Below are positions 37,594-61,523 of a stretch of 64,000 bases of DNA, piece after piece. Source of the stretch: Botryllus schlosseri (taxonomy: Eukaryota); contig CM119371.1 of NCBI GenBank assembly GCA_051294905.1, forward strand, positions 1,924,001 through 1,988,000. Direction: 5' to 3'. The stretch's first letter is position 1. Every line of letters starts with the position of its first letter. The notes under the pieces are model-generated. The model did no database searches. It was not told where the DNA came from and saw only the letters and a program-made list of their open reading frames with translations. The position numbers were made by a program, and so were the translations under genes.

Positions 37594-38279
37594 CTGGAAG
37601 ATAACAATATTTTTTGTTCAATATATTTTATGTATAGAAATGATCGGGCAAAAGCTATTACCTCTGTTTGGTAATATTTTATATAACCTAGAACCCAGGT
37701 ATTCAAGGAAGATATAGAGATTTATATTGTGAATATCGCAGAATCCAGTTCGGTAAGCCCGGTACCCCAAATTACCAAGATATCAATTCATTATGGTGGA
37801 GCACAGCATCGTAAATGCCGATAATGCAAGTCTATTCGTTTGCACGAACTTAACGCGAAAGCTCCACTCTCGCACCCACTCTCGGTAATGTCCATTCTCG
37901 GTAATGGTTTTCTCGGTATTGGTATAGAACCCCGTGCCCCCCCCCCCCCCCCATGCCCTGGTCTGCCGAGATTCCCCACTACTTGTTTACGACGTCAAAT
38001 TTTAGTGACTGTTTGTTATTATCTGCGTGTGCGCAGCGAGCTTGCGCGTAAGTAGAAGCGAGAAGACATGCATTATCGGCATTTACGGTTCTATACTATT
38101 ACCGGGAACGGCCAATGCCAGGAATCTAACTTACTGAGAGGACGTTGTCGAGAAATTTATTTCTCAGAATCGATACCAAATGCGGCAAAGCCGTCATGCA
38201 CATGTACATTCACACGACCTGTATATTAGGATCTTCAAAGATGACTTATTTTTCTTAAATCGCACTGTTAGGTTACCTC

Positions 38280-39379: not shown

Positions 39380-39400
39380 CAGGGGTCACCAACACGCGGC
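39380..39400 (+). mobile_element. End of a hAT-like MITE split by the Polinton-type insertion (continues at 60235)
   Basis: Rejoined sequence CAGGGGTCACCAACACGCGGC|CCGTCTGCGGCCTGCGA resembles the CAGGGG..CGGCCCG..TGCGGCC ends elsewhere in the window; the other end was not found. Confidence 0.55.
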
Positions 39401-39449
39401 AGTAGTATAGTAGATCGCACAGCCGGTGGCAGGGGCTCTTATGGGCGGG

Positions 39450-39735
39450 GTGGCGATTCGCCTGGAAACCCGGGGTGGCGATTCGCCTTTTTATACCCCC
39501 CCACTCTGGGCCGCGATTCGCCATGTGTTCTTATGGGTGCGGTCGTGATTCGCCTTTTCGGGTATAGGCTGCGGCGGTGAGGTGCCTGAAAACCCGGGGT
39601 GGTGACTCGCCTTTTTTGCTATAGGCCGCGGTCGTGATTCGCCGTGAAAACTCGTGGTCGTGACTCGTCTTTTTTGCTATAGGTGGTGGCGGTGATTCGC
39701 CATGTGTTCTTATGGGTGCGGTCGTGATTCGCACT
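39450..39735. repeat. GC-rich subterminal array of the (G)TGA(T/C)TCGCC / GCGATTCGCC motif (mirror at ~59895-60180)
   Basis: Motif recurs about every 25-30 bp (one longer gap); ~39-bp direct repeat at ~39515 and ~39694. Confidence 0.85.
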
Positions 39736-39829
39736 TTCTGCCATCTCTCGCGTGGTGTTGAATAGTCACCAACAATAACCGCACAAACGGAAACGTGGCT
39801 TGTAAGAGGATTTACGCAGTGCGTGCGAC

Positions 39830-42262
39830 CAGTGGCGGCACGTCATATAGGGCAACTGGGGCATTGCCCCACATAAAATTATGTTCAATAACAATTTAAC
39901 CATTTATAGACGCACAGCAATCAGTATATACCGAGATCACGGCGAAACCCGCATTATTCTTGTGCTTTCGCTAACAAATGCCCATACATAGCGAAGTCTC
40001 TGCGAAAATCGAATTCTCTTCTGTGTTTTCGCTTTGTGAATGCCTAGCCGGGGCTTGCCCCGGTAGCGCTCATAACAAGCTTTCACTATCTATTCTCTCA
40101 AAGCCGCGCACAATAAAGAAACGGTGATTTACTCTCTCCTATTCGTAAAATGGCCGAGCAAGTGGGGCAACTATGCCTGTCGCCCTTAAGGTGTGATGTA
40201 ACAATCGTATATCTATATCTGAACTCGGTTACCGTGATATGCGTTGACTCGACCTTTGCTGGTATATGTCGATTTTGACGGTGTTTCGCAGCATGATAAT
40301 TCTTGAAACTTGGTACGATATGTCGTGAAGGTAGTATTTAGCACTGCTCCAAGTTTCAGGCTTGCTACTCAAAGATAAGGGTGGTAATTTCGTTTCCGAA
40401 GTTCAGTGTGTGCTGATCTATCATGTACATTGTACAGCAAACAGATTTTACTCAAAAGCCGGTATTGGTCTCCATTGATTTTGACGATGTTCCATACCGA
40501 GATCGGTCATGATATTTGGCACAGTAAGTCTTAATGTTAGTATCGACCGCTGTAATAAGTTTTAAGTTTGTCACTGAACTATGTGGGTGGTAATTTCGTT
40601 TCCAAAGTCGAGTGAGAGCTGACTCTTCATTTATCGCTAACAGATTTACGCAAAAGCCGTTATTGGTCTCTATTGATTTTAACGATGTTCCATACCTAGA
40701 TCTGTCATGAGCTTTTGCACGGTATGTCTTGATTTTAGTATCGAACGCGGTGCCAAGTCTTAAAGTTGACGCTCAATGATTGAGGCAGTTATTTCGTTTT
40801 CGAGGTCGAGTATGGTAGAGATGCGCGCTGATCTGATACTTAGCCTACCTACATCATTGCGGATCTCACGGAAAAGCCGGTGTCTGTCTGTGCTAATCTA
40901 GTCTGCGTTCCATAACGAGATCGGTGATGATATTTCCAATGGTATATCTCGATGTTCGCATGAAACAGCTAACTAAGATTCTCGGTTTGCATTCAAATAT
41001 TCACATAATTTTATGTTCGCCAATGTGCATTTCACTGTGAAATTGTGTCCTTCAAACCATTTGCTTACAATCCCCTGTCAAATGCGATAGCTATTTCATT
41101 TTCGATGTCGGCTAACAGCTGATCATTCGATCAGCCTATTCCTCGATCTATTTTACTCAAAGTTCGGTGTTCGTCTGTTTGTATTGATTTTGACAGTGTA
41201 CCATGCCGGAATGGGTTATGAGATTGCGAATGCTACTTCTCGATGATTTCATGTAACAGTATGCTAAGTTTACGGCTTTCATTCATGTATTTATTGATTA
41301 ATATATTTTCCAACGGCGATTTGGCAGCAGACAGTAAGCCGTATGTGTTGCGTCACAATCTCCAGTTTCAAGGCCAAAATGTACTATGTTGTTCCGAGAC
41401 CGAAGTTCCGAGGCTGCTGTCCTTAGTTCTTCAAAGACCATTCAAATTGATGTTCTGGATTCAATATGACAGGCCCAATCTATGAGATAACAATTGCGTA
41501 TGTGTCCGAAGTCGTTGACCTTTGCAGTTAGGCTTACGCAATCTCTCGAGTTCTAGTCATTGGAATTAGTCTGGTCAAGTCAAGTGCGAACATGAATCGT
41601 ATTGAATCTTTGCTCCGTACGTAGGCTAGTTTACGCAGTTGCCTTTAGAGCGAAAATTAAAGGTCTAGAAGACTACTCCTTGTCGCTTCGACATATTCCT
41701 GTCTTTTCATTGTATCGCATTTTTGTGGTGTATTGAACTGATAAAATTGCTAATAAACCAATGATGATGATGATAGAAATTGTCCAGTCCATTGATCCAA
41801 TCGTACGCCGGGTACCTCCGCTTTGGTTGCCTATCACCTGGTCGTAACTCGTAACCACCAGCTCAGTGGTCGTAACACACCAGGATCGTGTACGAAACAC
41901 TTTCGGACGGCATATCGATTTGCGTAATCTCTAACTCTACCATGAAATCATAACGCATGCTACTAAGGATGACCTGATAATTGATTCGTGGCATAGGGAC
42001 GATTCTTAGTTCACGTACATTATGTAAAATAATCCTTTGATTAAAAAAAAATGAATAAAACATTTGTTACCACAGTTCCAGTCACGGCTCACCGGCAAAC
42101 CTCTCGCGGCACCTACGTTAAAATCACTGTTGTCGGGAAATTCATGTGACCATCATATTAAAGTTACTTTTTTACGTTGGAAAATTCCATTGTGACGTCA
42201 TGTTGATAAAAGTCGCTCGCAGCCCTTGCCCCACCACCCGATATTGTCACGAGCCGCCACTG
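39830..42262. mobile_element. Non-autonomous hAT-like element in left arm
   Basis: TIR CAGTGGCGGC..GCCGCCACTG; 8-bp TSD CGTGCGAC (39822-39829, 42263-42270); empty site present in the right arm. Confidence 0.9.
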
Positions 42263-42556
42263 CGTGCGACCTATATTCCGAATGACCTGCGCGCTGAATT
42301 GTTTCCGTGCAGCCGTGTGCTACTATCGATTATTACACTATTCCATTCAGTGCGAAATAGTTTGATCGTAAATTATTATATATGATATCGTAGTTTAGTC
42401 GTGTCAAATGTCCGATCGTGTTCTCTTTCCTCGCTATTGATTGCTAGCTGAATAATACTTTCGGCTTATTCACACCGCTGTTTCGCGCGTACAAAATAGT
42501 CTGCTGTTCACAACCACAACAAGAATCACAATTATACACATTTATACATTCATTTA

Positions 42557-42796
42557 TTACTCTGAAATCAAACTCTTCACAAAAGCACGCACAATCGTAT
42601 CATTCACTTTTTTATCATCACCAAAATTATTCAAGTATTCCTTGGCTGAAAATCCTTGAGCTCTTTTTATCAAGAATGCAATAGCATGATCTCCACACAC
42701 ATCCGAAGTTTTACTCTGTAACTGTTTCCCAGTCACAGAAAATTCATCCGGCTCCAGGAATTCGATTATCTGAGGTTTTAGTGGTCCGTGTGTCAA
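42557..42796 (-). pseudogene. Mirror copy of the adenain-like protease fragment
   Basis: Peptide identical to 59276-59515. Confidence 0.7.
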
Positions 42797-45700
42797 TTTG
42801 TCAACTTGAAATGAAACTTACTACACAAACCAAGTTGATTCGTATCTGAATGTGTTAATTCGGTACAACTCTAATCCTTTGAGAAATCTTTTCGTGATCT
42901 TTTGAATCGTACGTAACCTGAATATTACCGACACCGACTTTCAACCCCATCGAATTATTCACACATTCCACGCCGCTGTTTCTCGCCTATAGAATCAATA
43001 CCAACTAGTTGTATGAAAATCAAGAATCACAAGTATGTGCATTATACAGTTATTGTCTTTATCAACATGAAATCAAACTCTTAACAAAAACACGCAACTA
43101 ATCATTTGCCAGCTTTAAGATTATCAAAAAAATTCCAGTATTGTTGATTGAAAATCCTCGAGTCTTTATTTTTAAGAATGTTATAGTACGGTGTCGGAAT
43201 CCATTCGCGAGATGTTCTATAGGTAAATTGAGATAATCCGAAACCGAATATTTTTACTTTGGCGTAGTGTGAATTGAAATAGGATTGACAAACATGACTA
43301 CCATCTTTCCAAGTACCATTTCGATATTATACGCACATTGATTTGAAACAAGTAATGAAACATTGCAACTCTATTCGCGATCCCGCTTTCCGTTTGTCAA
43401 AGAGATATTTTAACATCTTACCATACTCAAAAGAATTATTCACAACATTAACAATTGTTAAAAATCTAGTTTTCACTTACTTGATTATATCACTGCAACT
43501 CATAAATTTGAATTAATTCATCCTGGCTGTATTCGTATGATCGGTCTTTTTTATTCAATTGTAAAAGTCGTTACTATTCTGAGGACAAAGTATTTACTAA
43601 TCGGTGCATATACGATTTGACTTGAACATATTATATTTTGAGTATACGAGATTTGAATGTCTGAACAATAACTGAGAAATAATTTATCACAATTAAATCC
43701 ATATATTACAGCGTAAAAGATATTGGAATGTCAGCAACTCGGTAAGGTCATAGTTACTACCACATTACCTAATTTACCCGACCAACTCGTCATGATCATT
43801 CCTGAAATCAACACAAACATGACCACTGACTTGAGTTAACCACAAAACAGCATCAAGTTTTAAATCCACTTGTAGCTTACGACTTATTTGAATGCGGGTT
43901 ATGTTTCGTTGTAATTGAGTGTACGGAAATAGTATTACGTCTCGACATCTCACCATCTTACCATATTCAAAGAGTCAACCACGAAAACATTGTCAAGGAA
44001 ATCCGTTTGTAACTTACCCAACCAACTCAAGCAGTCAGCCAAGCATACACGAATCCATACAATCACTAAAACCTAAAATCCATAACAAGTTCGGTTGTAC
44101 TCATATCCCTACGATGTATCATTTTTTATTCAACTTTAAAAGTCGTTACTATTCTGTAAGATAGAGGAATTACTACGCGGTATATTCTGCAAGACAAAGT
44201 AATTATTACTCGATATATTTTGTAAGACAAAAGTAATTACTACCCGGTGCAGGTGACTTGAGATTAACATAATTGTTTGAGTATACGAGATTTGAAAGTC
44301 TGATCAACGTATAGTTGCGACTTCATTTCTTACAATCGAACGCTGGTGTTATATCGAAAGTTACCATCCTGTAATCATAAGGATTGATACATAGATGTGT
44401 CATATGTAATAGTTGATCATGACTTGATTATTAAATTATTCGTGTTAATTAGACCCGGTGTTGTGGTAAAGGTTATGACAGCAACAAACTTTTCAGTACC
44501 GTTGTTATTAACATATCGAGTTGTAAAACTATGCATGTCCGAAATGTTCATGATTGGAAAATTATTCTACCTTGATACATATCACTCTGCGTATCGCGGA
44601 TATCAGAAAATATTTTACAAATGTAATTGTTTCCAGTAACCAAGACTAAAGATGAAACAACAATTTCGTTTGCTGATTAACAACCGGTGCAATACTTTAT
44701 TGTCGGAATCTGCGACATCGAATTGAAAAATACCCACATTACGCAGCACGAAAATATCACTTTGGGCTCCGGGGCGGTGTCATTTAATCTGTGTTAAACT
44801 CTGTTCACACTCTCTGTCGAAAATGCGTGAAATGCAAAAACATTACGAGGTCACACTCTAAGACTTTGATCATCAAAAAAGTAAATAGAGGTATCTTTAC
44901 TGGATGGATTCTGTTCAACTGGTCTTGGTTAATACAAAACCCATAACTGCAATATCGAAGTATGTGCTACACTGAAATCTACAAAATTGTGTTTGTATTG
45001 CTGTTCATTGTAGCGATATCGATTTGAACCTCCAGAATAATTGTCATCATGTAAGGGCAGTTGTTGTCAATTTGTACGATGTTCACTGAATGCGTACTAG
45101 AACTAATTGTGTAACACACACGATCAGAGAAATTGGAAATTTCCCCATTGTCATTCGTCACAATACTCGGCCACTAAAATACGTTACTTGGATGTGATTG
45201 AATCGCTGGCAGTTAACTCGATAAATCAAACCCCTAAGAAATTTCACTCACTCGTTGGATATTAAACAGAGTCACCTAATCGGTGTAGATCGTTTTTCTA
45301 AATGTAAATCATATAGGTCCAGCAGAAAACAATTTTCACTCACTCGGAAATGAAACCAATGTATTGGTCTCCATTCGATATTTTGTTTGTGTCAAATACT
45401 TTGCAATGAACACATTTGAGTGGTTGAGCTTTACATCATCAAGCTGTCATTTGTAAATCAAGATTTCGGTAAACTTGTAAATGTATCGTTTAACTAACCG
45501 AAATTTAGTGATTGGTGAACATACCAAACGATACACATCCACCTCCGAAATACTGCGTTGATCTTAATTTCCATCATCGTGATAATCGAAGTACATTTCT
45601 TTCGAATTCGTAACAACCGGCGTTTCTATGACATGATAAATTTTTGACAAGTTATGCTTAGAAGATTGGTTGCATATCGCGAAAAATAATATACCAATCA

Positions 45701-47027
45701 TATTAATACTCATATTACTTGAGTTTCTCCGCTTAATGTAAATGTAAACTTAGCCGTCTTTTAACATCACAAAGACATTGATAAAAAGTAGGCAATCAAA
45801 CGCTACAAGTTTAACTTTTGTAGGTTGTGTATGATTACCCCACGCAACTCATTTCTTACCAAAGGTATATGAAATATATTCATGGCACACAGAAATACTC
45901 GATATTCCCATGCTACGAATCTGTACAATGATTGGTGACGCTTTCAAACTGTTTCGATACCTCAAGACCTTTATTGTCGGAATGGATGTTCATGTATCTT
46001 AATAATCAAATAGTTCAACACAGAACTAGTATTAATAGAAACATCAGAGTTGTTTACACAAAAGTTTGTAAGTGTACAGTATGTGAATACCATGTGTAAG
46101 TTCAGCACAATTATGGTATCAATCCGAGTTTAGTTAACACAATTTACGACACCGAGGTCGCCTCATCTTTCGTAAGACAACAAACCAACCAAGGCTTCAG
46201 GATATGTCCATGTCATAGCAATAAATCAGCTACTCCAACAACAGAGTACATATGTTTTCTAGTTACGGTACTTACATCTTACACACAAGTCAATCTACTT
46301 TGCTAACGAAAAGTGCTGGGTCATCACATGGTTGTCCTCACAACAATACAACTAAAACATACTAGCAAAAAATGGTCGTTATAGTTTGCACACTAGGGTT
46401 GTCCAAAATTTGGAAAATGTTACAAATCCGTCGTTGTAATGTCTTATTCGATAGATTATTGATAAAAATCGACACTGGGCCTAAAAGAAACTCACAGGAA
46501 AGCCGTTAAGATTTCGTGCAAAGCGTTTGAAAGTAGCTGCCGAAGAATGGGCGTGTCACGGACCATAGAACGGCGAGAAGACTAGTAATCACGAAACCAC
46601 GGCTCTGGATTGGCTAATTGGCTATGCTTCAATGACCACGACAGCAGCAGCTTGATGATGAGGTGATCATGGAGTCTGCTACCGGCGGCGATTCTGACAG
46701 CACATTGTATGTAGGTTGACAGATAATGATTTAGGATTTATTCAGGGTATGTTGAGGTACGCAATACGTGATGTACGGCAACAGCTGCTTCACAAAAACG
46801 TCCAGAGCATGACTGCTTTATTGTGAAGGAAACCGCCGAAGCCTGTATGCCTTGTTTTCAACGAGGGAGAGCATAGGCGCTTATGCAAGTGGCGACGGAT
46901 TCCTAGTTTCAGAAAGGATCTATCATTATTGAATACAAATAAAAAGCTTGATAATGACACTACTTTGTCTGTGTGAGCTTATTGGGCTCAGGTTGTAGTA
47001 CATAGTTGAAGTTTTCATAGCTCTAAG

Positions 47028-48274
47028 CAGGGCTTTGGAGCCGGAGCCGGAGCCCCGGAGCCAGGCATTTTCACCGGAGCCGGAGCCGGAGCTCTACATA
47101 AAATTCTGCCGGAGCCGGAGCTGGAGCCCGTTATTTGAGGAGTAGCTCCGGCTCCGACGTATTTCATTAGATGCTATTATATATTGAACAACCACATCTG
47201 CTGATTTATCATAATTGAACAGCAGGCCTTAATATTAATGCTGTGCGCAGCAATGGCATAGAGTTAGGTGCGTTCTAGTGCAACTATGATGTTATCGACA
47301 AGTGAGAAGTATTCATTATGACGTCACAAGCCGGCAAGGCGGCACCTATGTCTTCGTTGCTACATCGGATGTTATTGACGGCTGACAGACTCTTAGATTA
47401 CTATGGATAACTAACCTACGGGTAGATTGGTAATCTGTATACACCAGGAAGGGGCAACCTTCTGGTTTATAAGGGACACATGAAATTGACGATCGAGCGC
47501 GCGGTCCACTAGCCGCGCCATGCGGGTAAAATTTACAAAGTTTATAAATAAACCAGGTCAATAATATTATCATTTGAGTATATTGCGGGTCTACTGTATA
47601 GTATACCGCCTGCTAGTCTCAGTTTGCAAGGACACGACTATTCGGCGTCTGGCCACATCTATATCGAAGGTCTCCGATAATATCCGATAATCATTTTTTG
47701 CCTACATTTCAACGTCGACGATCTTTATGCGAGCGCAAACGCGAAAAGACTTTCTCCCGTAATTGCGAATACAGTTAGACTCAATCGGGTAAATTAGGGG
47801 GTAGGCAGCAAGAAATCGTGTGAAAATTAAACACGCGAAGCGCGAAGAAAAATTTCACTACTATTTTAGTTTATTGTAATGTATGACGATTTACTGAAAA
47901 TTTGACTGGACCCTGGACCTGCCAATGCGTCGGAACTGATATTTTAGTCATCAACATCCCAAATGTCGCAGCCAGAGTTGTAAGTTATGGTTGGCATTGC
48001 AATTTTTGCTTGGCATTGCAATTTCAAAATCGGAGTAATTCGTTTTCGATCATAATAGGAAGGAAATTACATTGCGGGCCACGCAAAACCCTCTCGGGCG
48101 GGCCACATTTTCACCGCTGGTTGGCCACCCCTGATATAGACAGGCCCATTCGATAATTTCATAGCCGGAGCTGGAGCCGGAGCAGTGGTAATAATGCCGC
48201 TCCGGAGCTAATGTATGATAGAAGAAAGCGCCGGAGCCGGAGCAGTTTAAATTTCCGGCTGCTCCAAAGCCCTG
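47028..48274. mobile_element. hAT-like MITE with GGAGCC subterminal repeats (nested)
   Basis: TIR CAGGGCTTTGGAGC; 8-bp TSD GCTCTAAG. Confidence 0.9.
47445..48133. mobile_element. Older hAT-like MITE nested in 47028-48274
   Basis: Degenerate ends CAGGAAGGGGCAACC / GGTTGGCCACCCCTG; flanks GTATACAC / ATATAGAC (6 of 8 match). Confidence 0.55.
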
Positions 48275-50184
48275 GCTCTAAGGATCGGCTGAATTAGCGG
48301 GTTAGCTTGGCACTTATCAGATGCTTTTACATCAAATTGTATTCACTGGCAAGTGTTGTCAAATTCCTTAATGATGGCGCAGAAAAGAGGTGTAAAAGTA
48401 AGCACATAATATGTCACATATGATATGCTGAAGACCTTGATTATCGTGCAGAAAAGGGGTGTAAGGGAAAGCACAGACAATGTTGCATAGTGCATAGTAT
48501 CCAGCATAGTGTTTATATAATATCAAGCATAGTCCGTGCTTACATTTATACCTCGTATCTGCGGCATCATTAGGGACTTTTTAAAATACTTACAAGTGAA
48601 TTCAATTTTCTGTAAACATCTGATAAGTGCCAAGCCTAACCGTCTGATTCAACAGGTCCCTAGATCATTCAAAACTTCAACTATGTACTACAACCTGAGC
48701 CCAATAAGATCACCCAAATTGAAGTGTCATTGTTAGGCTTTATATTTGTATTCAATAATGATACAGCCTTTCTGAAACTAGGAATCCGTCGCCACTTGCA
48801 TAAGCGCCTGTGCTTTCCCTCGTTGAAAACAAGGCATATAGACTACGGCGGTTTCATACACAATAAAGCAGTCATGCGTTAGACGTTTTTGTATAGCAGC
48901 TGCTGTTTGCACATCATGTATTTCGTACCTCAACTTACCCTGAATCAATCCTAAACCATTATCTGTCAACCTACATACAATGCGCTTTCAAAAACGCCAC
49001 CGGTAGCAGACTCCTTGATCACCTCATCATCAAGCCGCTGCTGTCGTGGTCATTGAAGGATAGCCGATTAGCCAATCAAGAGCCGTGGTTTCGTGATTAC
49101 TAGTCTTCTCGCCGTTCTATGGTCGGTGGAACGCCCATTCATGGGCAGCTACTTTCAAACGCTTTGCACGAAATCTTAACGGCCTTCCTGTGAGCTTCTT
49201 TTAGACCCAGTGTCGTTTTTTATTATTAATCCATAGAATAAGATATTACAACGGAGGATTTGTAAAATTTTCCAAATTTTGGACAACCCTGTTGCACACC
49301 AACGATACATCGTACAAGTACCAAGTCTCGAGAATCCAGTTATTCAAAAAAAGTGAAAGTGTTTCTACGCCAAGTTGTTATGTTGACGAGAGCGTATATT
49401 GTAATATCATGATCGATTTGTATTCGTTGGTCACAAAATGTCACTACTCTAAATAATTATTTTTCCCTTAATCACGGTACATCGTACAAGTAAAAAGTCT
49501 TGAGGATCGAGTTATTGAAAAAAACTTTAAAGTGTGTCTCCTGCATCAAGTCGTTATGTTGACGAAAGCGTATATTGTAATATCATGGTCGATTTGCATT
49601 CGCTGGTCAGTGGTCACAAACTGTCACTACTCTAAATAATTATTTTTCACTCAAACACAAAAGCATACTTGTGGACATTCGTTTTCATCAAGCACGAGTT
49701 CAAGAAACTTACTGCGACATGAATTGTTATTTTTATGTAGTGTAAATACATAATAATTAATTTTAGTAACACTATATCAACATCATCGACTTGTGCGAAT
49801 ATATTTACATGTAGTCTTGTGGTTTTAATCGAAGCACACAGCGTGTTCTAATGTAGAGTCATCTCTATTGTACAACAACTCGGTAATCGAAATGTATGCA
49901 TTAACATTTAAACAGCGATCTTGTTACGTCACGCGAAAAATATGTTCACTATCGCGATACTCTGCACAGGGAGTGCAAATCCTTTTCACACTCGTAATAG
50001 TATATCAACGGCTACTGGCGACAACGTTTAACAATACCAACGACACTAAACATACGATACCTACCCAAGTAAAATTACCATTTTCACCTGGAGGTCAGGC
50101 GATACCAGAGTAAAAATATCATTGTCCTTTGGGGATTTATCGTTTACTCAGAGTAGCAATACATTTTCACTTGAGGGTCTATCG

Positions 50185-51690
50185 CAGGCGTGGGCAAACT
50201 TTTGAGCTCGCGGGCCGCATTCAACATCTGAATCCATTCGCGGGCCGCACTATATAAAATTGGGACTTAAACCAAAACGCAATATTGGTATTTGATTATA
50301 TAGTGAGGACATGGAGATAATAGATATGCTTATTTACAACAATCCACACATTGCTTTAAGGATATCGTACAAGCGTCAGAAACAGTGGCGAGATTTCATA
50401 GGCTGGTCGGCCTCAATAACCAATTTGTCAAAATTATAGCGATGAAAGTCGGTTGTCCCGATTCTTAGAACGGGATTGAAATTTAAATCTCAGAGCAGCG
50501 ATCCGTTCAAAGATTGACTAATTCAACTTTTGGTTCAGTTCCGGGACACACAATGCTGACAGCATCATAACCATGTTAGCTTCAAACATGCTTCTACTAT
50601 GTGTAGATAAAATATAAATACCCTAATTCTACGCATACATAGAACGAATCTACCTAAGACACGCGCGAATCGTTTGTTTAAAGGGGCACTGCGCTCTAAA
50701 AATGATGTGGTCTCAAAATGAAGGTAAAAACGAACAAAATTTTTTGGCCGCAGCCATTTCCTCCAGAACGCCACCGTAATGGAGCTGCAATTTATTGAAA
50801 TTTCTACAAGACTAGCTGCCGCGGCTGCTTAACCCGTTACATGGCACGATGTCTTCATCGTCGCACTTGCTCGACGCGATAAGGCAGTCACGCAGAGAAC
50901 GAAACTTAGACACATTTCCTTCATAACATCGGCTGACAACTATCTAAAATTCGTTCTCTGCGTGACTGCCTAATCGCGTCGAGCAAGTGCGACGGTGAAG
51001 ATATCGTGCCATGTAACGGGTTAAGCAGCCGCGGCAGCTGGTCTTGTAGAAATTTTATTAAATTGCAGCTCCATTACGGTGGCGTTCTGAAGGAAATGGC
51101 CGCGGCCAAAAATTTTTGTTCGTTTTTACCTTCAATTTGAGACCACATCATTTTTAGAGCGCAGTGCCCCTTTAAGCACATCACTGAAATGATTAAAACT
51201 GAAGTGGCCAATCTGAAATCACACTCGTGATCCGAATTATGTCAATCTCGTTTAGGATTTCTGTCATGTTTAGCAGATAAAACCTTTCAAAGTGCGTGGG
51301 CTGATGGTTTGATGGCATGGAAGGTTACGACTGTGGATGAGAGATTTTCAAATATGAAATTCAGACTAAGTACTAAGAAATATTTATGAATAAGGCGAAA
51401 ATCGCGCGAAGCGCGAAAAAAATATCCAGTTGGGCTCAGCTTCGGGCCCGTGCCTTAGAATTATCATGGTGCAATAGGTAAAGAAATAGTTTAGTCAAGT
51501 GTCCGCATTAATTCGATATTTAGTACGCATTTTATCAATATTTTAAATAAGTTTCTTTATACTCTCGCGGGCCGCACAGAAAAGTGTGGCGGGCCGTAGT
51601 TTGCCCACCCCTGCTTTAGACTCTCGCGGGCCGCACAGAACAGTGTTGCGGGCCGCATGCGGCCCGCGGGCCGTAGTTTGCCCACCCCTG
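50185..51690. mobile_element. hAT-like element with GCGGGCCGC subterminal motifs
   Basis: TIR CAGG(C/G)GTGGGCAAACT; 8-bp TSD GTCTATCG; empty site in the right arm (~54795). Confidence 0.9.
50682..51171. mobile_element. Fold-back MITE with TTAA TSD (Kolobok-like termini)
   Basis: TTAA|AGGGGCACTGCGC...GCGCAGTGCCCCT|TTAA; ~225-bp near-perfect arms. Confidence 0.75.
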
Positions 51691-51709
51691 GTCTATCGTT
51701 TCCTAGAGT

Positions 51710-51935
51710 AACAAACCCCTTTTCCTTTGGAAATATATTTTTTCCCTGGGTTACAAACCTTTTTCACTTGGAAATATATTTTTTCACCGGGTAACAAACC
51801 TTTTTCACTTGGAAATATATTTTTTCCCTGAACAACAAACCTTTTTCACTTGGAAATATATTTTTTCTCTGGGTAACAAACCTTTTTAACTTGGAAATAT
51901 ATTTTTTCCCTGAGCAACAAACCATTTTCACTTGG
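51710..51935. repeat. 41-bp minisatellite (GGAAATATATTTTTTC core); mirror at ~54600-54785
   Basis: Five core copies in the left arm and four in the right; degenerate copies flank both. Confidence 0.9.
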
Positions 51936-53726
51936 CGATCCACCGTTTACCTGAGTAAAAATATCATTTTCCTTTGGAGATCTGGCGTTTACCCAGTGTA
52001 ACAATACATTTTCTCTTGGCCATCTAGCTTTTCCTAGAGTAACAAAACCATTTTCATTTTGAAATCTGACAAACACACCTGACAATTTGGTATTTGTTGT
52101 ATTGACGATAGTTTGAAATAGATTACAACGAACAGTGACGGAAATATACACGGACCACCGGTTTCAGAGTATACCCCCATCAGTCGTATCACATCAATAT
52201 CATCGTTTAACTACATACAATATGCTCTTGTACACCGAAATGCATGTTTTGGAAAATTGGACAATAGGCTTCGATAGTTCTGTGATGTCCGGGTTCGTGC
52301 TTTGGATTTTCCAGAGTCAAAATGTCTGAATAAAACACCTCCTTGACGATGGTTGGTATGTGGATAACGGTGTTCGGAAAACGGTTGGATTTATGTCACC
52401 CATCGCGATAACAATTCCAGGTCGAGTTTTCCCTCGCGTGTTTACTAAATTGTGTCTTTATGGGTCATGTATGTCTCGACATTCAGTTTGAAATCGGAAA
52501 CCCTGATAAAGTATGTAACCGGATCCGGATATCAACTCTGAATCGATAAACCAATGAACAATATTCAAAGTAAACATGTTACACCCTGTGTTTCCACGAA
52601 AAAATACCATCCAGACACACGTCGCGCTTGTTTGCCCACATCAGTATACGCGTAAATGGAGGTGTGTGACATTGCATGCAATGTGTTGGTATACAAACAT
52701 CGATCCACAGACATTATCATAGCCGGTAGTTTTGATGTAGATCGAATGCCATCACACCCGATAACAATGTCATACCAATAAGCCACATTGGAATGACTCT
52801 GAGTCAATCTGAAGCGTGACATACAGACACACAAACATCGAACCGTAACATGGGTTATTCGCACGATGGTGAAAGTGAACTATACAGCATATACCAATAG
52901 AGCGTTCACAGTCGAATATGCGAACCACGCACAATCACATACCCTGGTTTTTGTTGGATATGTACGAAACCAATAAATCGATACATTTCTGTTCCTTGTA
53001 CGTCAATAATACAAGCGTCATTCCAATGCATCGCTCGAATGTAAGGTTCGTCGGGTGTAAAATCCATGTCAAATAACACCAAAGTGTGCTTTCCGGGTTT
53101 TATTATTTCCACCGACGCTTCTTGTCTGTGTCGTAACACTATGGTGCGGGGAGTTGAAAAACGGTGGATTGTGAAACGGATTGACATGACCAACAGAATC
53201 GACGTCAATAGACTTGTGACGATGTCGTTTCAAAATGATACCGATCTCTTGTGGTGACGACCGTTTCGAAATGTCACCGGACGAACTGGACCCTTACGAT
53301 GATGTGTTTTATGATTGCGTGTGAAATCGCGAGGTAGTGTTCTATTGTGGTGTACGATTGCAGTCTTCATTCCACAGAAATACACCTTATTGGATCACAG
53401 TATCAGTCCGAGATTTGCAGAATCACTGTTCACGATATTTATCTGGAGTCGTTATGTGGGAGTAGTGACATCCATGCATCGTGATTTAGTGAAAGACTGA
53501 TCGCAATCATTTCGAGCACCCGTGATTCGATAGTTCACCTTGGTCAAACGCTGCAGTCTCAGCAGAAAACTTCGGTGTCGACAACACGATGGATATTGAC
53601 CGATGTATCCAATTGGTCTGGGTGGTCTGTCCGGAGATAGGGCCATGACTATCTTGTAATGTTACAACACGATAACACAATCGAGTAAATCAGTGAACGG
53701 TGCCGAAATATCGATGTAATAGCGCG

Positions 53727-56700
53727 GACTCAGAGTCATTGCAATGTGGCCTATTGGTATGACATTGTTATCGGGTGTGATGACATTCGATCTACATCAA
53801 AACTACCGGCTATGATAATGTCTGTGGATCGATGTTTGTATACCAACACATTGCATGCAATGTCACACACCTCCATTTACGCGTATACTGATGTGGGCAA
53901 ACAAGCGCGACGTGTGTCTGGATGGTATTTTTTTCGTGGAAACACAGGGTGTAACATGTTTACTTTGAATATTGTTCATTGGTTTATCGATTCAGAGTTG
54001 ATATCCGGATCCGGTTACATACTTTATCAGGGTTTCCGATTTCAAACTGAATGTCGAGACATACATGACCAATAAAGACACAATATAGTAAACACGCGAG
54101 GGAAATCTCGACCTGGAATTGTTATCGCGATGGGTGACATAAATCCAACCGTTTTCCGAACACCGTTATCCACATACCAACCATCGTCAAGGAGGTGTTT
54201 TATTCAGACATTTTGACTCTGGAAAATCCAAAGCACGAACCCGGACATCACAGAACTATCGAAGCCTATTGTCCAATTTTCCAAAACATGCATTTCGGTG
54301 TACAAGAGCATATTGTATGTAGTTAAACGATGATATTGATGTGATACGACTGATGGGGGTATACTCTGAAACCGGTGGTCCGTGTATATTTCCGTCACTG
54401 TTCGTTGTAATCTATTTCAAACTATCGTCAATACAACAAATACCAAATTGTCAGGTGTGTTTGTCAGATTTCAAAATGAAAATGGTTTTGTTACTCTAGG
54501 AAAAGCTAGATGGCCAAGAGAAAATGTATTGTTACACTGGGTAAACGCCAGATCTCCAAAGGAAAATGATATTTTTACTCAGGTAAACGGTGGATCGCCA
54601 AGTGAAAATGGTTTGTTACCCAGAGAAAAAATATATTTCCAAGTGAAAAAGGTTTGTTGTTCAGGGAAAAAATATATTTCCAAGTGAAAAAGGTTTGTTA
54701 CCCGGTGAAAAAATATATTTCCAAGTGAAAAAGGTTTGTAACCCAATGAAAAAATATATTTCCAAAGGAAAAGGGGTTTGTTACTCTAGGAAACGATAGA
54801 CCCTCAAGTGAAAATGTATTGCTACTCTGAGTAAACGATAAATTCCCAAAGGACAATGATATTTTTACTCTGGTATCGCCTGACCTCCAGGTGAAAATGG
54901 TAATTTTACTTGGGTAGGTATCGTATGTTTAGTGTCGTTGGTATTGTTAAACGTTGTCGCCAGTAGCCGTTGATATACTATTACGAGTGTGAAAAGGATT
55001 TGCACTCCCTGTGCAGAGTATCGCGATAGTGAACATATTTTTCGCGTGACGTAACAAGATCGCTGTTTAAATGTTAATGCATACATTTCGATTACCGAGT
55101 TGTTGTACAATAGAGATGACTCTACATTAGAACACGCTGTGTGCTTCGATTAAAACCACAAGACTACATGTAAATATATTCGCACAACTCGATGATGTTG
55201 ATATAGTGTTACTAAAATTAATTATTATGTATTTACACTACATAAAAATAACAATTCTTGTCGCAGTAAGTTTCTTGAACTCGTGCTTGATGAAAACGAA
55301 TGTCCACAAGTATGCTTTTGTGTTTGAGTGAAAAATAATTATTTAGAGTAGTGACAGTTTGTGACCACTGACCAGCGAATGCAAATCGACCATGATATTA
55401 CAATATACGCTTTCGTCAACATAACGACTTGATGCAGGAGACACACTTTAAAGTTTTTTTCAATAACTCGATCCTCAAGACTTTTTACTTGTACGATGTA
55501 CCGTGATTAAGGGAAAAATAATTATTTAGAGTAGTGACATTTTGTGACCAACGAATACAAATCGATCATGATATTACAATATACGCTCTCGTCAACATAA
55601 CAACTTGGCGTAGAAACACTTTCACTTTTTTTGAATAACTGGATTCTCGAGACTTGGTACTTGTACGATGTATCGTTGGTGTGCAAACTATAACGACCAT
55701 TTTCTGCTAGTATGTTTTAGTTGTATTGTTGTGAGGACAACCATGTGATGACCCAGCACTTTTCGTTAGCAAAGTAGATTGACTTGTGTGTAAGATGTAA
55801 GTACCGTAACTAGAAAACATATGTACTCTGTTGTTGGAGTAGCTGATTCATTGCTATGACATGGACATATCCTGAAGCCTTGGTTGGTTTGTTGTCTTAC
55901 GAAAGATGAGGCGACCTCGGTGTCGTAAATTGTGTTAACTAAACTCGGATTGATACCATAATTGTGCTGAACTTACACATGGTATTCACATACTGTACAC
56001 TTACAAACTTTTGTGTAAACAACTCTGATGTTTCTGTTAATACTAGTTCTGTGTTGAACTATTTGATTATTAAGATACATGAACATCCATTCCGACAATA
56101 AAGGTCTTGAGGTATCGAAACAGTTTGAAAGCGTCACCAATCATTGTACAGATTCGTAGCATGGGAATATCGAGTATTTCTGTGTGCCATGAATATATTT
56201 CATATACCTTTGGTAAGAAATGAGTTGCGTGGGGTAATCATACACAACCTACAAAAGTTAAACTTGTAGCGTTTGATTGCCTACTTTTTATCAATGTCTT
56301 TGTGATGTTAAAAGACGGCAGAGTTTACATTTACATTAAGCGGAGAAACTCAAGTAATATGAGTATCAATATGATTGGTATATTATTTTTCGCGATATGC
56401 AACCAATCTTCTAAGCATAACTTGTCAAAAATTTATCATGTCATAGAAACGCCGGTTGTTACGAATTCGAAAGAAATGTACTTCGATTATCACGATGATG
56501 GAAATTAAGATCAACGCAGTATTTCGGAGGTGGATGTGTATCGTTTGGTATGTTCACCAATCACTAAATTTCGGTTAGTTAAACGATACATTTACAAGTT
56601 TACCGAAATCTTGATTTACATATGACAGCTTGATGATGTAAAGCTCAACCACTCAAATGTGTTCATTGCAAAGTATTTGACACAAACAAAATATCGAATG

Positions 56701-59700
56701 GAGACCAACACATTGGTTTCATTTCCGAGTGAGTGAAAATTGTTTTCTGCTGGACCTATATGATTTACATTTAGAAAAACGATCTACACCGATTAGGTGA
56801 CTCTGTTTAATATCCAACGAGTGAGTGAAATTTCTTAGGGGTTTGATTTATCGAGTTAACTGCCAGCGATTCAATCACATCCAAGTAACGTATTTTAGTG
56901 GCCGAGTATTGTGACGAATGACAATGGGGAAATTTCCAATTTCTCTGATCGTGTGTGTTACACAATTAGTTCTAGTACGCATTCAGTGAACATCGTACAA
57001 ATTGACAACAACTGCCCTTACATGATGACAATTATTCTGGAGGTTCAAATCGATATCGCTACAATGAACAGCAATACAAACACAATTTTGTAGATTTCAG
57101 TGTAGCACATACTTCGATATTGCAGTTATGGGTTTTGTATTAACCAAGACCAGTTGAACAGAATCCATCCAGTAAAGATACCTCTATTTACTTTTTTGAT
57201 GATCAAAGTCTTAGAGTGTGACCTCGTAATGTTTTTGCATTTCACGCATTTTCGACAGAGAGTGTGAAAAGAGTTTAACACAGATTAAATGACACCGCCC
57301 CGGAGCCCAAAGTGATATTTTCGTACTGCGTAATGTGGGTATTTTTCAATTCGATGTCGCAGATTCCGACAATAAAGTATTGCACCGGTTGTTAATCAGC
57401 AAACGAAATTGTTGTTTCATCTTTAGTCTTGGTTACTGGAAACAATTACATTTGTAAAATATTTTCTGATATCCGCGATACGCAGAGTGATATGTATCAA
57501 GGTAGAATAATTTTCCAATCATGAACATTTCGGACATGCATAGTTTTACAACTCGATATGTTAATAACAACGGTACTGAAAAGTTTGTTGCTGTCATAAC
57601 CTTTACCACAACACCGGGTCTAATTAACACGAATAATTTAATAATCAAGTCATGATCAACTATTACATATGACACATCTATGTATCAATCCTTATGATTA
57701 CAGGATGGTAACTTTCGATATAACACCAGCGTTCGATTGTAAGAAATGAAGTCGCAACTATACGTTGATCAGACTTTCAAATCTCGTATACTCAAACAAT
57801 TATGTTAATCTCAAGTCACCTGCACCGGGTAGTAATTACTTTTGTCTTACAAAATATATCGAGTAATAATTACTTTGTCTTGCAGAATATACCGCGTAGT
57901 AATTCCTCTATCTTACAGAATAGTAACGACTTTTAAAGTTGAATAAAAAATGATACATCGTAGGGATATGAGTACAACCGAACTTGTTATGGATTTTAGG
58001 TTTTAGTGATTGTATGGATTCGTGTATGCTTGGCTGACTGCTTGAGTTGGTTGGGTAAGTTACAAACGGATTTCCTTGACAATGTTTTCGTGGTTGACTC
58101 TTTGAATATGGTAAGATGGTGAGATGTCGAGACGTAATACTATTTCCGTACACTCAATTACAACGAAACATAACCCGCATTCAAATAAGTCGTAAGCTAC
58201 AAGTGGATTTAAAACTTGATGCTGTTTTGTGGTTAACTCAAGTCAGTGGTCATGTTTGTGTTGATTTCAGGAATGATCATGACGAGTTGGTCGGGTAAAT
58301 TAGGTAATGTGGTAGTAACTATGACCTTACCGAGTTGCTGACATTCCAATATCTTTTACGCTGTAATATATGGATTTAATTGTGATAAATTATTTCTCAG
58401 TTATTGTTCAGACATTCAAATCTCGTATACTCAAAATATAATATGTTCAAGTCAAATCGTATATGCACCGATTAGTAAATACTTTGTCCTCAGAATAGTA
58501 ACGACTTTTACAATTGAATAAAAAAGACCGATCATACGAATACAGCCAGGATGAATTAATTCAAATTTATGAGTTGCAGTGATATAATCAAGTAAGTGAA
58601 AACTAGATTTTTAACAATTGTTAATGTTGTGAATAATTCTTTTGAGTATGGTAAGATGTTAAAATATCTCTTTGACAAACGGAAAGCGGGATCGCGAATA
58701 GAGTTGCAATGTTTCATTACTTGTTTCAAATCAATGTGCGTATAATATCGAAATGGTACTTGGAAAGATGGTAGTCATGTTTGTCAATCCTATTTCAATT
58801 CACACTACGCCAAAGTAAAAATATTCGGTTTCGGATTATCTCAATTTACCTATAGAACATCTCGCGAATGGATTCCGACACCGTACTATAACATTCTTAA
58901 AAATAAAGACTCGAGGATTTTCAATCAACAATACTGGAATTTTTTTGATAATCTTAAAGCTGGCAAATGATTAGTTGCGTGTTTTTGTTAAGAGTTTGAT
59001 TTCATGTTGATAAAGACAATAACTGTATAATGCACATACTTGTGATTCTTGATTTTCATACAACTAGTTGGTATTGATTCTATAGGCGAGAAACAGCGGC
59101 GTGGAATGTGTGAATAATTCGATGGGGTTGAAAGTCGGTGTCGGTAATATTCAGGTTACGTACGATTCAAAAGATCACAAAAAGATTTCTCAAAGGATTA
59201 GAGTTGTACCGAATTAACACATTCAGATACGAATCAACTTGGTTTGTGTAGTAAGTTTCATTTCAAGTTGACAAATTGACACACGGACCACTAAAACCTC
59301 AGATAATCGAATTCCTGGAGCCGGATGAATTTTCTGTGACTGGGAAACAGTTACAGAGTAAAACTTCGGATGTGTGTGGAGATCATGCTATTGCATTCTT
59401 GATAAAAAGAGCTCAAGGATTTTCAGCCAAGGAATACTTGAATAATTTTGGTGATGATAAAAAAGTGAATGATACGATTGTGCGTGCTTTTGTGAAGAGT
59501 TTGATTTCAGAGTAACAAATGAATGTATAAATGTGTATACTTGTGATTCTTGTTGTGGTTGTGAACAGCAGAGTATTTTGTAGGCGCGAAACAGCGGTGT
59601 GAATAAGCCGAAAGTATTATTCAGCTAGCAATCAATAGCGAGGAAAGAGAACACGATCGGACATTTGACACGACTAAACTGCGATATCATATATAATAAT

Positions 59701-60228
59701 TTACGATCAAACTATTTCGCACTGAATGGAATAGTGTAATAATCGATAGTAGCACACGGCTGCACGGAAACAATTCAGCGCGCAGGTCATTCGGAATATA
59801 GGTCGCACGCACTGCGAAAATCCTCTTACAAGCCACGTTTCCGTTTGTGCGGTTATTGTTGGTGACTATTCAACACCACGCGAGAGATTGCTGAAAGTGC
59901 GAATCACGACTGCACCCATAAGAACACATGGCGAATCACCGCCTCCACCTATAGCAAAAAAGACGAGTCACGACCACGAGTTTTCACGGCGAATCACGAC
60001 CGCGGCCTATAGCAAAAAAGGCGAGTCACCACCCCGGGTTTTCAGGCACCTCACCGCCGCAGCCTATACCCGAAAAGGCGAATCACGACCGCACCCATAA
60101 GAACACATGGCGAATCGCGGCCCAGAGGGGGGGTCTAAAATGGCGAATCGCCACCCCGGGTTTCCAGGCGAATCGCCACCCCGCCCATAAGAGCCCCTGC
60201 CACCGGTTGTGCGATCTACTATACTACT
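53727..60228. repeat. Right arm of giant inverted repeat (6502 bp, uninterrupted)
   Basis: Reverse complement of the left arm, with scattered substitutions only. Confidence 0.95.
59276..59515 (+). pseudogene. C-terminal fragment of adenain-like (Polinton/adenovirus-type) cysteine protease
   Basis: QLQSKTSDVCGDHAIAFL..RAQG.S..EYLNNF.DDKKVNDTIV..FV resembles the Q-x4/5-S-x-x-C-G...ND pattern of these proteases; the N-terminal catalytic-His region is absent. Confidence 0.7.
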
Positions 60229-61523
60229 CGCGGCCCGTCTGCGGCCTGCGACGTGATTTGAGATTTCGGAAGAAAGCTAAGAAAACCAATTTGAAATGCT
60301 GAAATTGACTACAGTTTAAAAATGTTGCTGTTTTTTTTTCAAAATAAGCTATTTCCTTGTGCCTAATATCACTATTCGTCACTAGCAAAAACGGCTGTGT
60401 TGATGGCAACAACACTCCATCGAGGGAGAATCAGCTGATATGAATGGGCAGTCTTGACTTGCAATGGCGCAAACACTGACAAGACCGAGACGCTTCGAAA
60501 ACGGCTTGGGGCAGTGGTTCCTGAAACTGGGGAGCGCGAAAGCATCAGAAGGGGAGGCGGCGGTGCGCTCAACTGAGGGGCGCGAGGGATACTCCCGTGA
60601 TTTCAACGAGCAATGACCTCAAACTTGAGTTACATGCTGGTTCCGTACACAAGTAACACAAATAACTTGAAAGGTATGGCTATGATATTATTTTTCATCC
60701 ACGGGCCTCAATTGAGTTCCGCCCCTCAATTGGGCAATTGTGGGATTTGGGATGTGGCAGTTACGTCTTGTGTTCCACTACTCGAAGTGCTATATGGTGA
60801 GACGAGCTATTTTCTCCTTAGACAGAGTGTCACAAGGTCTAAAAGATTGAGAAGTACTGATATAAAAGTCCGGTGTCGAAAATATTCGAACCAGTCATGG
60901 TCTTAAATTGGGATAATCGTCAGTGAATTCTTAGAAATTCCAGCTGGTATATTCTCGATTTAGGGCAGGGGCGCCACACTCAAATTCGGCCACATCGGTA
61001 TATGACGAGCCAGATATCGGCATCACTCCATGTTACCTAAAAACCTGCGAAATTCATTTCCAATCTAATCCAGGCTCGCGTTTGAAGCTGAACTTTGTGA
61101 GGCATATTTCTCTATCACCCTCTCCTGACCCATATCACTATTCCGCCAACATTTTGTTATATCCTGGCTGTTATTGAAAAGCTTCTGACCCCGGCGGCAG
61201 ATCAATCTCCTTCACTGGAAAACCATTACTGCTGTATATTTTTCTAAGGAAACTGCTGCACGCAACTTGTTGCTGTTGTTGTTGCAGGTACGGTACTCTC
61301 GTGTTATTGCATTATGACGTAACCCACCTCACAGACGGTTAACCATAGGTGACGAAAAGTGATGCGGCAGCAATAATTGCGTATAAATCACAAAGCTGTA
61401 TTAGCCAGAGGTGTTACGGTATCTCGGCGTCTTATAACGTAATAATGTAAGCTGCGTCGGGTGCTGCTATAATGTTAGGAGCGAATATATTCGAATGTCC
61501 ACGATACTGACCAGTCATCAACT

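Follow-up and report, generated by a model that had tools for sequence, protein, structure and literature searches.

Intact vertebrate Mavericks (Polintons) are reported to carry terminal inverted repeats (TIRs) of 46-1,447 bp, with a mean of 402 bp, and their commonest end type, 5'-(AGT)2//(ACT)2-3', is accompanied by perfect 6-bp duplications, with (AG)3//(CT)3 as an alternative end motif (Barreat & Katzourakis 2021, PMC8097293). In the butterfly polintons described in a preprint, TIRs of about 2 kb hold the hexon and adenain genes (bioRxiv 10.1101/2025.02.07.637071). Here we analyze an element at positions 39401-60228 of a 64,000-nt stretch of the Botryllus schlosseri genome (assembly GCA_051294905.1, CM119371.1; hereafter the window, to which all coordinates refer). 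The results confirm that this element is a real 20.8-kb mobile-element insertion, composed almost entirely of two 6.5-kb mirror-image arms and devoid of working genes.

Like the vertebrate Mavericks surveyed in PMC8097293, the Botryllus element presents (AGT)2//(ACT)2 ends, a perfect 6-bp duplication, TIRs and adenain-like protease sequence. It differs from them in lacking pPolB, integrase, ATPase and capsid genes, in belonging to a family with a copy number far above the usual, and in the length of its inverted repeats, which at 6.5 kb are 4.5 times the longest reported for the intact vertebrate elements. Furthermore, the protease gene is described as central and inward-pointing in typical vertebrate Mavericks, whereas the young protease piece of the Botryllus element is outward-pointing and located 0.7 kb from the end. 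The butterfly polintons resemble this element in that their inverted repeats have extended inward over the adenain gene, yielding two copies per insertion, but the reported elements retain a full-length, coding genome, the rest of which lies between the TIRs, whereas here the repeat fills nearly the whole element and nothing is coding. By analogy, the gene-holding butterfly TIRs would show the first steps of such arm growth. Searches of the open literature recovered no description of a Maverick with such arms (Repbase and subscription journals fall outside this coverage).

Architecture of the insertion

The element opens at 39401 with AGTAGTATAGTAGATCGCAC, the exact reverse complement of which closes it at 60228, with AGTAGT at the left terminus and ACTACT at the right one, and a perfect CGCGGC direct repeat flanks it on both sides (Table 1). 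The DNA beyond the two CGCGGC copies does not consist of mutual inverted copies, and the 6-bp repeat is therefore a direct target-site duplication and not a part of the palindrome. When up to three mismatches are allowed, the terminal 20-mer is found at only two sites in the window, and none of 100 shuffles contained any match. Removal of three later insertions leaves an element of 13,967 bp, of which the inverted repeat makes up 93% by arithmetic. A repeat search coupled with self-BLAST resolved four collinear inverted blocks, defining a left arm of 6,544 bp and a right arm of 6,502 bp around a 921-bp spacer. These features (AGTAGT inverted ends with a perfect CGCGGC duplication, a size of about 14 kb once the insertions are removed, and near-identical arms of about 6.5 kb around a 921-bp spacer) had all been put forward in an original prediction made from the sequence, and each of them was recovered here. 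Neither the spacer nor the arm has a match in the remaining 43 kb of the window, Rfam reported no family on 39000-60600, and no nested repeats were found inside the arms.

Long inverted repeats are hard to assemble, and the public sequencing runs considered below yielded short contigs of a high-copy family. Both points would be compatible with an assembly artefact, be it a palindromic mis-join or two haplotypes folded together. The flanks, however, differ while sharing the direct 6-bp duplication, and the arms are set apart by 35 substitutions, three indels (2, 41 and 1 bp long, the second of them corresponding to one minisatellite unit) and three insertions with their own 8-bp duplications. 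In addition, a spacer that is unmatched elsewhere in the window separates the arms, whereas the palindromes generated by chimeric reads are spacer-less and near-perfect. We hence consider an artefact very improbable and regard the two arms as distinct, genuine DNA.

The left arm is interrupted by three genuine later insertions, as originally proposed, each presenting its own TIRs and flanked by an 8-bp duplication of a stretch that occurs once in the right arm. Their duplication length and CAG/TAG...CTG ends give them the appearance of non-coding hAT elements, the short TIRs of which begin with CAG/TAG. No transposase was detected in them by Pfam scans of 70 open reading frames (ORFs) from the insertions and neighboring left arm, indicating that they are non-autonomous. 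The second insertion has inverted repeats of its own, about 630 bp long and 90% identical, and the third contains an internal 236-bp inverted repeat (50675-50910 / 50943-51178).

Both termini harbor an array of the subterminal motif GYGAYTCGCC, with nine sites per terminal 330 bp in a single orientation relative to the end. Within the window, 22 of the 25 matches to this motif fall inside the two terminal regions, where chance would place 5.5, and the arrays are candidate sites for the binding of replication or integration proteins. The inner end of each arm, in turn, consists of an 11-nt near-palindrome, GACTC-T-GAGTC (52795-52805 and 53727-53737), so that the spacer is bracketed by a direct repeat matching at 10 of 11 positions. 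This near-palindrome could be a microhomology involved in fold-back priming, or the trace of a spacer insertion into a formerly spacer-less palindrome. The arms also contain a minisatellite with a 41-42-bp unit (51694-52065 and 54465-54901) and, over their outermost 2.5 kb, degenerate direct duplications that recur every 500-640 bp.

Protease remnants and Maverick affinity

Pfam scans were performed on all stop-to-stop ORFs of at least 45 aa, of which the right arm and spacer contributed 78, the insertions and their vicinity 70 and the flanking DNA three. Inside the element, these scans returned only sub-threshold chance matches, and six whole-frame read-throughs, with X at stops, matched no Pfam family. 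Neither approach detected a signal for polymerase, integrase (rve), ATPase or capsid, although in the case of the capsid decayed remnants could have been missed. It follows that the element can only be a non-autonomous derivative, and that the case for its Maverick ancestry is made by the ends, the duplication and the protease pieces.

The outermost of these pieces, the ORF at 59255-59512, encodes the C-terminal half of an adenain-like protease. It retains the active-site Gln and Cys, but the N-terminal half with the His and Asp is missing, so it cannot be an active enzyme. A full HMMER search with this ORF against 1.84 billion representatives (E ≤ 1e-3) identified 66 proteins, most of them 120-190 aa long and matched in their C-terminal half. 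Among 21 of the matches analyzed with Pfam, 10 touch Peptidase_C5 (three above the curated cut-off) and one touches Peptidase_C48 only. In a 38-sequence alignment of the protease, the Gln and Cys columns are invariant, and the corresponding profile matched the solved structures of adenain (1avp, 5.5e-9) and of African swine fever virus (ASFV) S273R (5.6e-12). A language-model protein atlas pointed to the same protease clan for the ORF. Three matches from the protein search were rejected: P0001 and P0003, the two top-scoring long proteins, are low-complexity repeat proteins, and P0044 is a PKD-domain protein.

A word-index search located an intact protease of 147 aa, P0068, encoded on a single public contig of 7,972 bp. 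Being intact and 93% identical to the ORF, P0068 establishes that a coding relative of the element's lineage exists. A C-terminal-half-only fragment of 81 aa, 68% identical to the ORF (P0002), has been called as a gene in a public assembly and hints at related truncated elements elsewhere. A further protein with a Peptidase_C5 domain, P0069 (144 aa, 36% identical to P0068), is encoded on a 14.9-kb contig. Queries of the JGI metagenomes and IMG/VR with P0068 and P0013 returned nothing besides a weak match, at 28%, to L001, a viral contig of 50 kb.

A second, decayed piece, aligning to the N-terminal region of the protease, lies at the inner end of each arm. In the left arm it shares 30% identity with P0068 and contains three stops in 43 codons, with a Smith-Waterman score of 64 against a shuffle maximum of 39 (0 of 1000 shuffles reached 64). 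Its score against P0004 was 47, again above a shuffle maximum of 39 (0 of 1000), ten other members of the protease family gave no clear score on it, and in a window-wide tblastn control its score was reached by one of 200 shuffles. The age of the protease-derived sequence in the arms thus increases from the outer to the inner ends. The possibility that the outer C-terminal and inner N-terminal pieces are halves of one gene split by inversion was rejected on account of their very different decay (93% identity and an open frame versus 30% identity and three stops in 43 codons).

Table 1. Features of the Botryllus schlosseri element, in window coordinates
Feature	Position	Strand	Remarks
Left target-site duplication copy, CGCGGC	39395..39400		direct repeat of 60229-60234
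Left arm segment 1 (terminus)	39401..39829	+	AGTAGT start; G+C-rich; 9 GYGAYTCGCC sites between 39453 and 39733
Inverted block 1	39401-39830 vs 60228-59801		430 bp; 97.7%
Insertion A, hAT-like, non-coding	39830..42262		ends CAGTGGCGGC..GCCGCCACTG; duplication CGTGCGAC at 39822-39829 and 42263-42270; no Pfam domain
Inverted block 2	42261-46393 vs 59811-55679		4,133 bp; 99.6%
Left arm segment 2	42263..46393	+	99.6% identity to 59811-55679
Adenain-like protease C-terminal half, left-arm mirror	42560..42817	-	toward left terminus; profile i-Evalue 4.7e-29
Insertion B, hAT-like	46394..49291		ends TAGGGTTGTCC..GGACAACCCTG; duplication TTGCACAC
Left arm segment 3	49292..50184	+	99.7% identity to 55686-54794
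Inverted block 3	49292-50184 vs 55686-54794		893 bp; 99.7%
Insertion C, hAT-like	50185..51690		ends CAGGCGTGGGCAAAC..GTTTGCCCACCCCTG; duplication GTCTATCG
Left arm segment 4	51691..52805	+	41-bp minisatellite 51694-52065; inner end GACTCTGAGTC
Inverted block 4	51753-52805 vs 54781-53727		1,055 bp; 97.4%
Decayed protease N-terminal remnant	52680..52805	+	aligns to P0068 residues about 7-49; 3 stops; toward spacer
Spacer between arms	52806..53726		921 bp; no Pfam domain
Right arm	53727..60228	-	6,502 bp; uninterrupted; ACTACT end
Mirror of decayed protease N-terminal remnant	53727..53852	-	score 56; alignment stops at arm/spacer junction
Older diverged direct copy of protease tail	58886..59051	+	74% identity to 59388-59552; within degenerate tandem duplications
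Adenain-like protease C-terminal half, right-arm copy	59255..59512	+	open 86-codon frame toward right terminus
Right target-site duplication copy, CGCGGC	60229..60234		

Taken as sequence evidence, the ends, the 6-bp duplication and the protease pieces of two ages make Maverick/Polinton ancestry a well-supported assignment. The ends and duplication match the commonest type of the vertebrate survey and the outer ORF corresponds to an adenain-like protease half, in agreement with the derivation that had been predicted. The prediction had also stated that the arms are far longer than known TIRs, which holds against the ranges reported for vertebrates and butterflies, and that only protease remnants are present, to which the inner N-terminal piece can now be added.

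Several traits of the element could instead point to a cut-and-paste DNA transposon outside the Mavericks, of the Foldback or Galileo kind, that acquired protease fragments: its inverted repeats are long, with internal tandem repeats and subterminal motif arrays, it carries no Maverick replication or integration gene, and its copy number is very high for a Maverick. This alternative is nonetheless improbable, in view of the 6-bp duplication and (AGT)2//(ACT)2 ends, a specific signature of Mavericks as they are reported in vertebrates, and of the presence in the arms of protease pieces of two ages. Foldback and P-like Galileo elements, moreover, belong to other superfamilies and generate duplications of other lengths, of 9 and 7 bp, respectively. 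Transposons of this type (PMC3573991) do resemble the Botryllus element in the great length and internal repetitiveness of their inverted repeats and in having little coding content or none, but they lack AGTAGT ends.

The repeat family in public sequencing runs

Part of the region 52700-60500 is contained in 20 of 24 listed public runs (12 studies), under five organism labels as well as in seawater, marine and other metagenomes. Run X1 (organism A) contributed 156,537 contigs on this region, with identities spread over 90-100% (48,333 at 99% or above, 59,373 at 95-99% and 48,831 at 90-95%), while 8,551 contigs were obtained from a run of the same organism in another study (X16) and 2,215 from a run of organism B (X5). 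All 30 bins of the region, including the spacer, are covered in each of these three runs. Summed depth in X1 is flat over the spacer, at 131-136 thousand, and ranges from 27 to 522 thousand in the arm bins. The ratio of mean arm depth to spacer depth, as computed by arithmetic, is 1.7 in X1 and 2.7 in X5 (2.1 without the minisatellite bin); two arms per spacer should yield a ratio of about 2, but the arm bins vary 20-fold. These data demonstrate that a very abundant repeat family, present also under a second organism label, includes both the spacer and the arm.

At many positions, the base carried by the Botryllus copy is nearly absent from other copies, and the depth of the window base at these positions is 18-77. 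If such depths are about single-copy, the spacer would be present in roughly 10^3-10^4 copies. Most of the bases that are rare with respect to the family majority are common to both arms, indicating that the arms are each other's closest relatives. This bears on the possibility that two family copies inserted nearby in opposite orientation and later lost the intervening DNA and their inner ends. The abundance of the family would favor such an encounter, and some arm differences do fall at family-polymorphic sites (at 55849, about 14% of the depth corresponds to the right arm's base). The many rare variants shared by the arms run counter to this scenario, as does the fact that both arms end inward at exactly the same base, and the outer flanks of two independent copies would share no duplication, the chance of a 6-bp match being 1 in 4,096. 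We regard it as the least credible of the alternatives considered, and most unlikely to apply.

Within the right arm, the segment 56876-57397 (and its mirror in the left arm) shows a depth 5-10 times below that of its neighbors in X1 and X5, and still lower in X16, with well-supported loose ends at 57018, 57402 and 57667. Most copies of the family seem to lack this segment, or to have it replaced. Contigs of organism E (X19) share 0.38 of the words of 52700-60500, unlike the raw Hi-C reads of the same organism (X21), which gave zero matches on the region, and runs from seawater, marine and urban metagenomes share 0.22-0.28 of the words, from which no inference was drawn.

Regarding the genomic surroundings, a 501-codon open frame with a NACHT domain (36125-37627, minus strand; Pfam E 9.5e-15) lies 1.8 kb to the left of the element and is, by its predicted domain, an NLR-type immune-receptor exon, as is typical of animals with expanded NLR families. 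Starting 1.2 kb to the right, several consecutive open frames on the plus strand (61479-63791), one of which contains RVT_1 (62473-63390; E 6.2e-32), look like a non-long-terminal-repeat (non-LTR) retrotransposon. The insertion site itself (39380-39400 / 60229-60500) coincides with the apparent start of another hAT-like miniature element, CAGGGGTCACCAAC...GCGGCC, and the right flank is repetitive, with a summed depth of 17,305 in X1.

Origin and mobility of the folded form

The structure described above would be explained by a non-autonomous Maverick/Polinton derivative that was inserted in the chromosome and retained what is needed in cis, namely the (AGT)2 termini and the nine-motif subterminal arrays. 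As the element encodes no proteins, a Maverick integrase acting in trans would have inserted it and generated the 6-bp duplication. We propose a process of arm replacement, in which a parent element lost one of its sides and had it restored as an inverted copy of the opposite one; this would leave nearly all of the element as a 6.5-kb inverted repeat around a 921-bp loop. Folding may have occurred on an extrachromosomal linear replicating form, through a template switch or fold-back priming, with the folded form then integrating and multiplying parasitically on autonomous Mavericks; after integration, the arms would have undergone gene conversion and the left arm would have received three hAT-like elements. 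Helper-dependent integration, the arm-replacement mechanism and its timing are inferred from the structure, and folding on a free replicating form followed by insertion in trans is the account that we tentatively favor, while granting that it falls somewhat short of being probable.

Defective adenovirus genomes are also said to carry long inverted repeats. In the snap-back and copy-back defective genomes covered by a review, a short loop is flanked by two oppositely oriented copies of one genome end (PMC13506859). The Botryllus element shares with them the inverted end duplication, in place of the other end, the short loop, the loss of coding capacity and the two identical replication ends. 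The reviewed genomes, however, are extrachromosomal, occur in infections and belong mostly to RNA viruses, whereas the element is chromosomal, is part of an abundant family and is old enough to have received three insertions. A second parallel is provided by the terminal-protein-capped linear chromosomes of Streptomyces, in which arm replacement after breaks is reported for 15 of 18 genomes (PMC5869714). There too, TIRs are present on a linear replicon with protein-primed replication, a lost arm is repaired from the other one and the TIRs lengthen greatly, but the replicon is a bacterial chromosome and the reported recombination takes place at long homologous repeats, whereas homology at the inner junction of the Botryllus element is limited to a near-palindrome of at most 11 nt.

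The same architecture might also have arisen in place. A parent with ordinary TIRs, of up to about 1 kb, would have integrated with the CGCGGC duplication and later suffered a break. Break-induced copying would have repaired it, with the right TIR serving as primer on the inverted left one; synthesis would have proceeded inward along the left side until the new strand was ligated to the opposite broken end at 53726/53727, and the folded form would never have been mobile. The distribution of differences between the arms is pertinent to this scenario. Of the 35 substitutions, 14 fall within the outer 1,063 bp (p=0.0005); a stretch of 1,854 bp without differences follows (p=0.0003 for such a gap), and the other 21 are in the remaining 3.65 kb. 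Divergence amounts to 1.3% in the outer 1,063 bp versus 0.38% further in (21 in about 5,500 bp). CpG transitions account for only two of the 14 outer substitutions, too few for CpG decay to explain the outer excess, and the outer 1 kb lies inside the TIR range published for vertebrate Mavericks (PMC8097293), as would be the case if an older short TIR had been extended by a younger inner duplication.

The difference-free 1,854-bp tract, on the other hand, is indicative of gene conversion between the arms, a process also seen in other long genomic palindromes. The patchy divergence as a whole suggests such conversion, which could also generate the gradient if it were weaker near the ends, and the outer excess is modest once the tract is set aside. 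Folding in place draws additional support from the inner protease remnant, the alignment of which seems to cross the left arm/spacer junction and continue into the spacer (score from 56 to 80), in which case left arm and spacer would be old continuous sequence; the spacer continuation is not significant by itself, however, being equaled in 105 of 1000 shuffles. Likewise, break-induced arm replacement is documented in linear replicons (PMC5869714), but recombination between inverted repeats normally yields an inversion and not arm replacement, and in two runs the depth of arm relative to spacer, being close to twofold, gives a hint that copies with two arms per spacer are common in the family. 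Folding in place is accordingly a serious possibility, to which we nevertheless give less than an equal share of belief. The original prediction had envisaged a copy-back genome, either inserted already folded by a helper integrase or rearranged in place. The structure fits the former proposal, and a copy-back origin is plausible, but arm replacement in place after integration fits the structure equally well; between the two, we deem folding on a free form slightly more likely.

Several observations weigh against folding on a free form followed by insertion in trans. In addition to the outer excess of substitutions and the insignificant spacer continuation of the inner remnant, the family profile misses that remnant, and the ORFs and read-through frames lack any polymerase, integrase, ATPase or capsid signal. 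The terminal 20-mer had no matches in JGI metagenome contigs or in IMG/VR, where no autonomous partner with these ends was found. Run X1 is probably derived from the source sample of the assembly and hence provides no independent support, and run X21, with no reads on the region, offers no test. Finally, none of the loose ends listed (18 of 2,575) falls at an arm/spacer junction, and no second copy of the fold-back junction 53726/53727 appears among them.

In its most far-reaching version, the proposal would make the folded form itself the transmissible unit, that is, a snap-back defective Maverick genome with two identical replication and integration ends, replicated and inserted by helpers, which has outgrown those helpers to reach thousands of copies in at least two organism labels and has had its outer ends renewed by recombination with them. 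Repeated recombination of the outer ends with a helper, if it took place, would explain why the younger protease pieces lie toward the ends. We consider this conjunction of claims doubtful and, as a whole, rather unlikely.

Mavericks are thought to replicate as linear, protein-primed genomes, a process for which we know of no direct observation. An integrated mirror copy of one end is a product to be expected from protein-primed linear replication, or from the repair of such a linear form. The structure is solid and unusual, and its most interesting reading depends on a genome-wide count of the fold-back junction. Should the junction be unique to this locus, it would represent the local rearrangement of an ordinary decayed element. 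Should it recur at many sites, gene-less Maverick derivatives would be mobilizable in trans on a large scale, and the integration machinery would tolerate inverted repeats of 6.5 kb. A transmissible folded form, if true, would constitute the first genomic record in this virus group of genomes resembling defective-interfering ones, and hence of linear protein-primed replication. The element illustrates the extent of reshaping that a Maverick can undergo and still be compatible with spread, and suggests that mobile elements can seed long palindromes in animal genomes, which are then kept alike by gene conversion.

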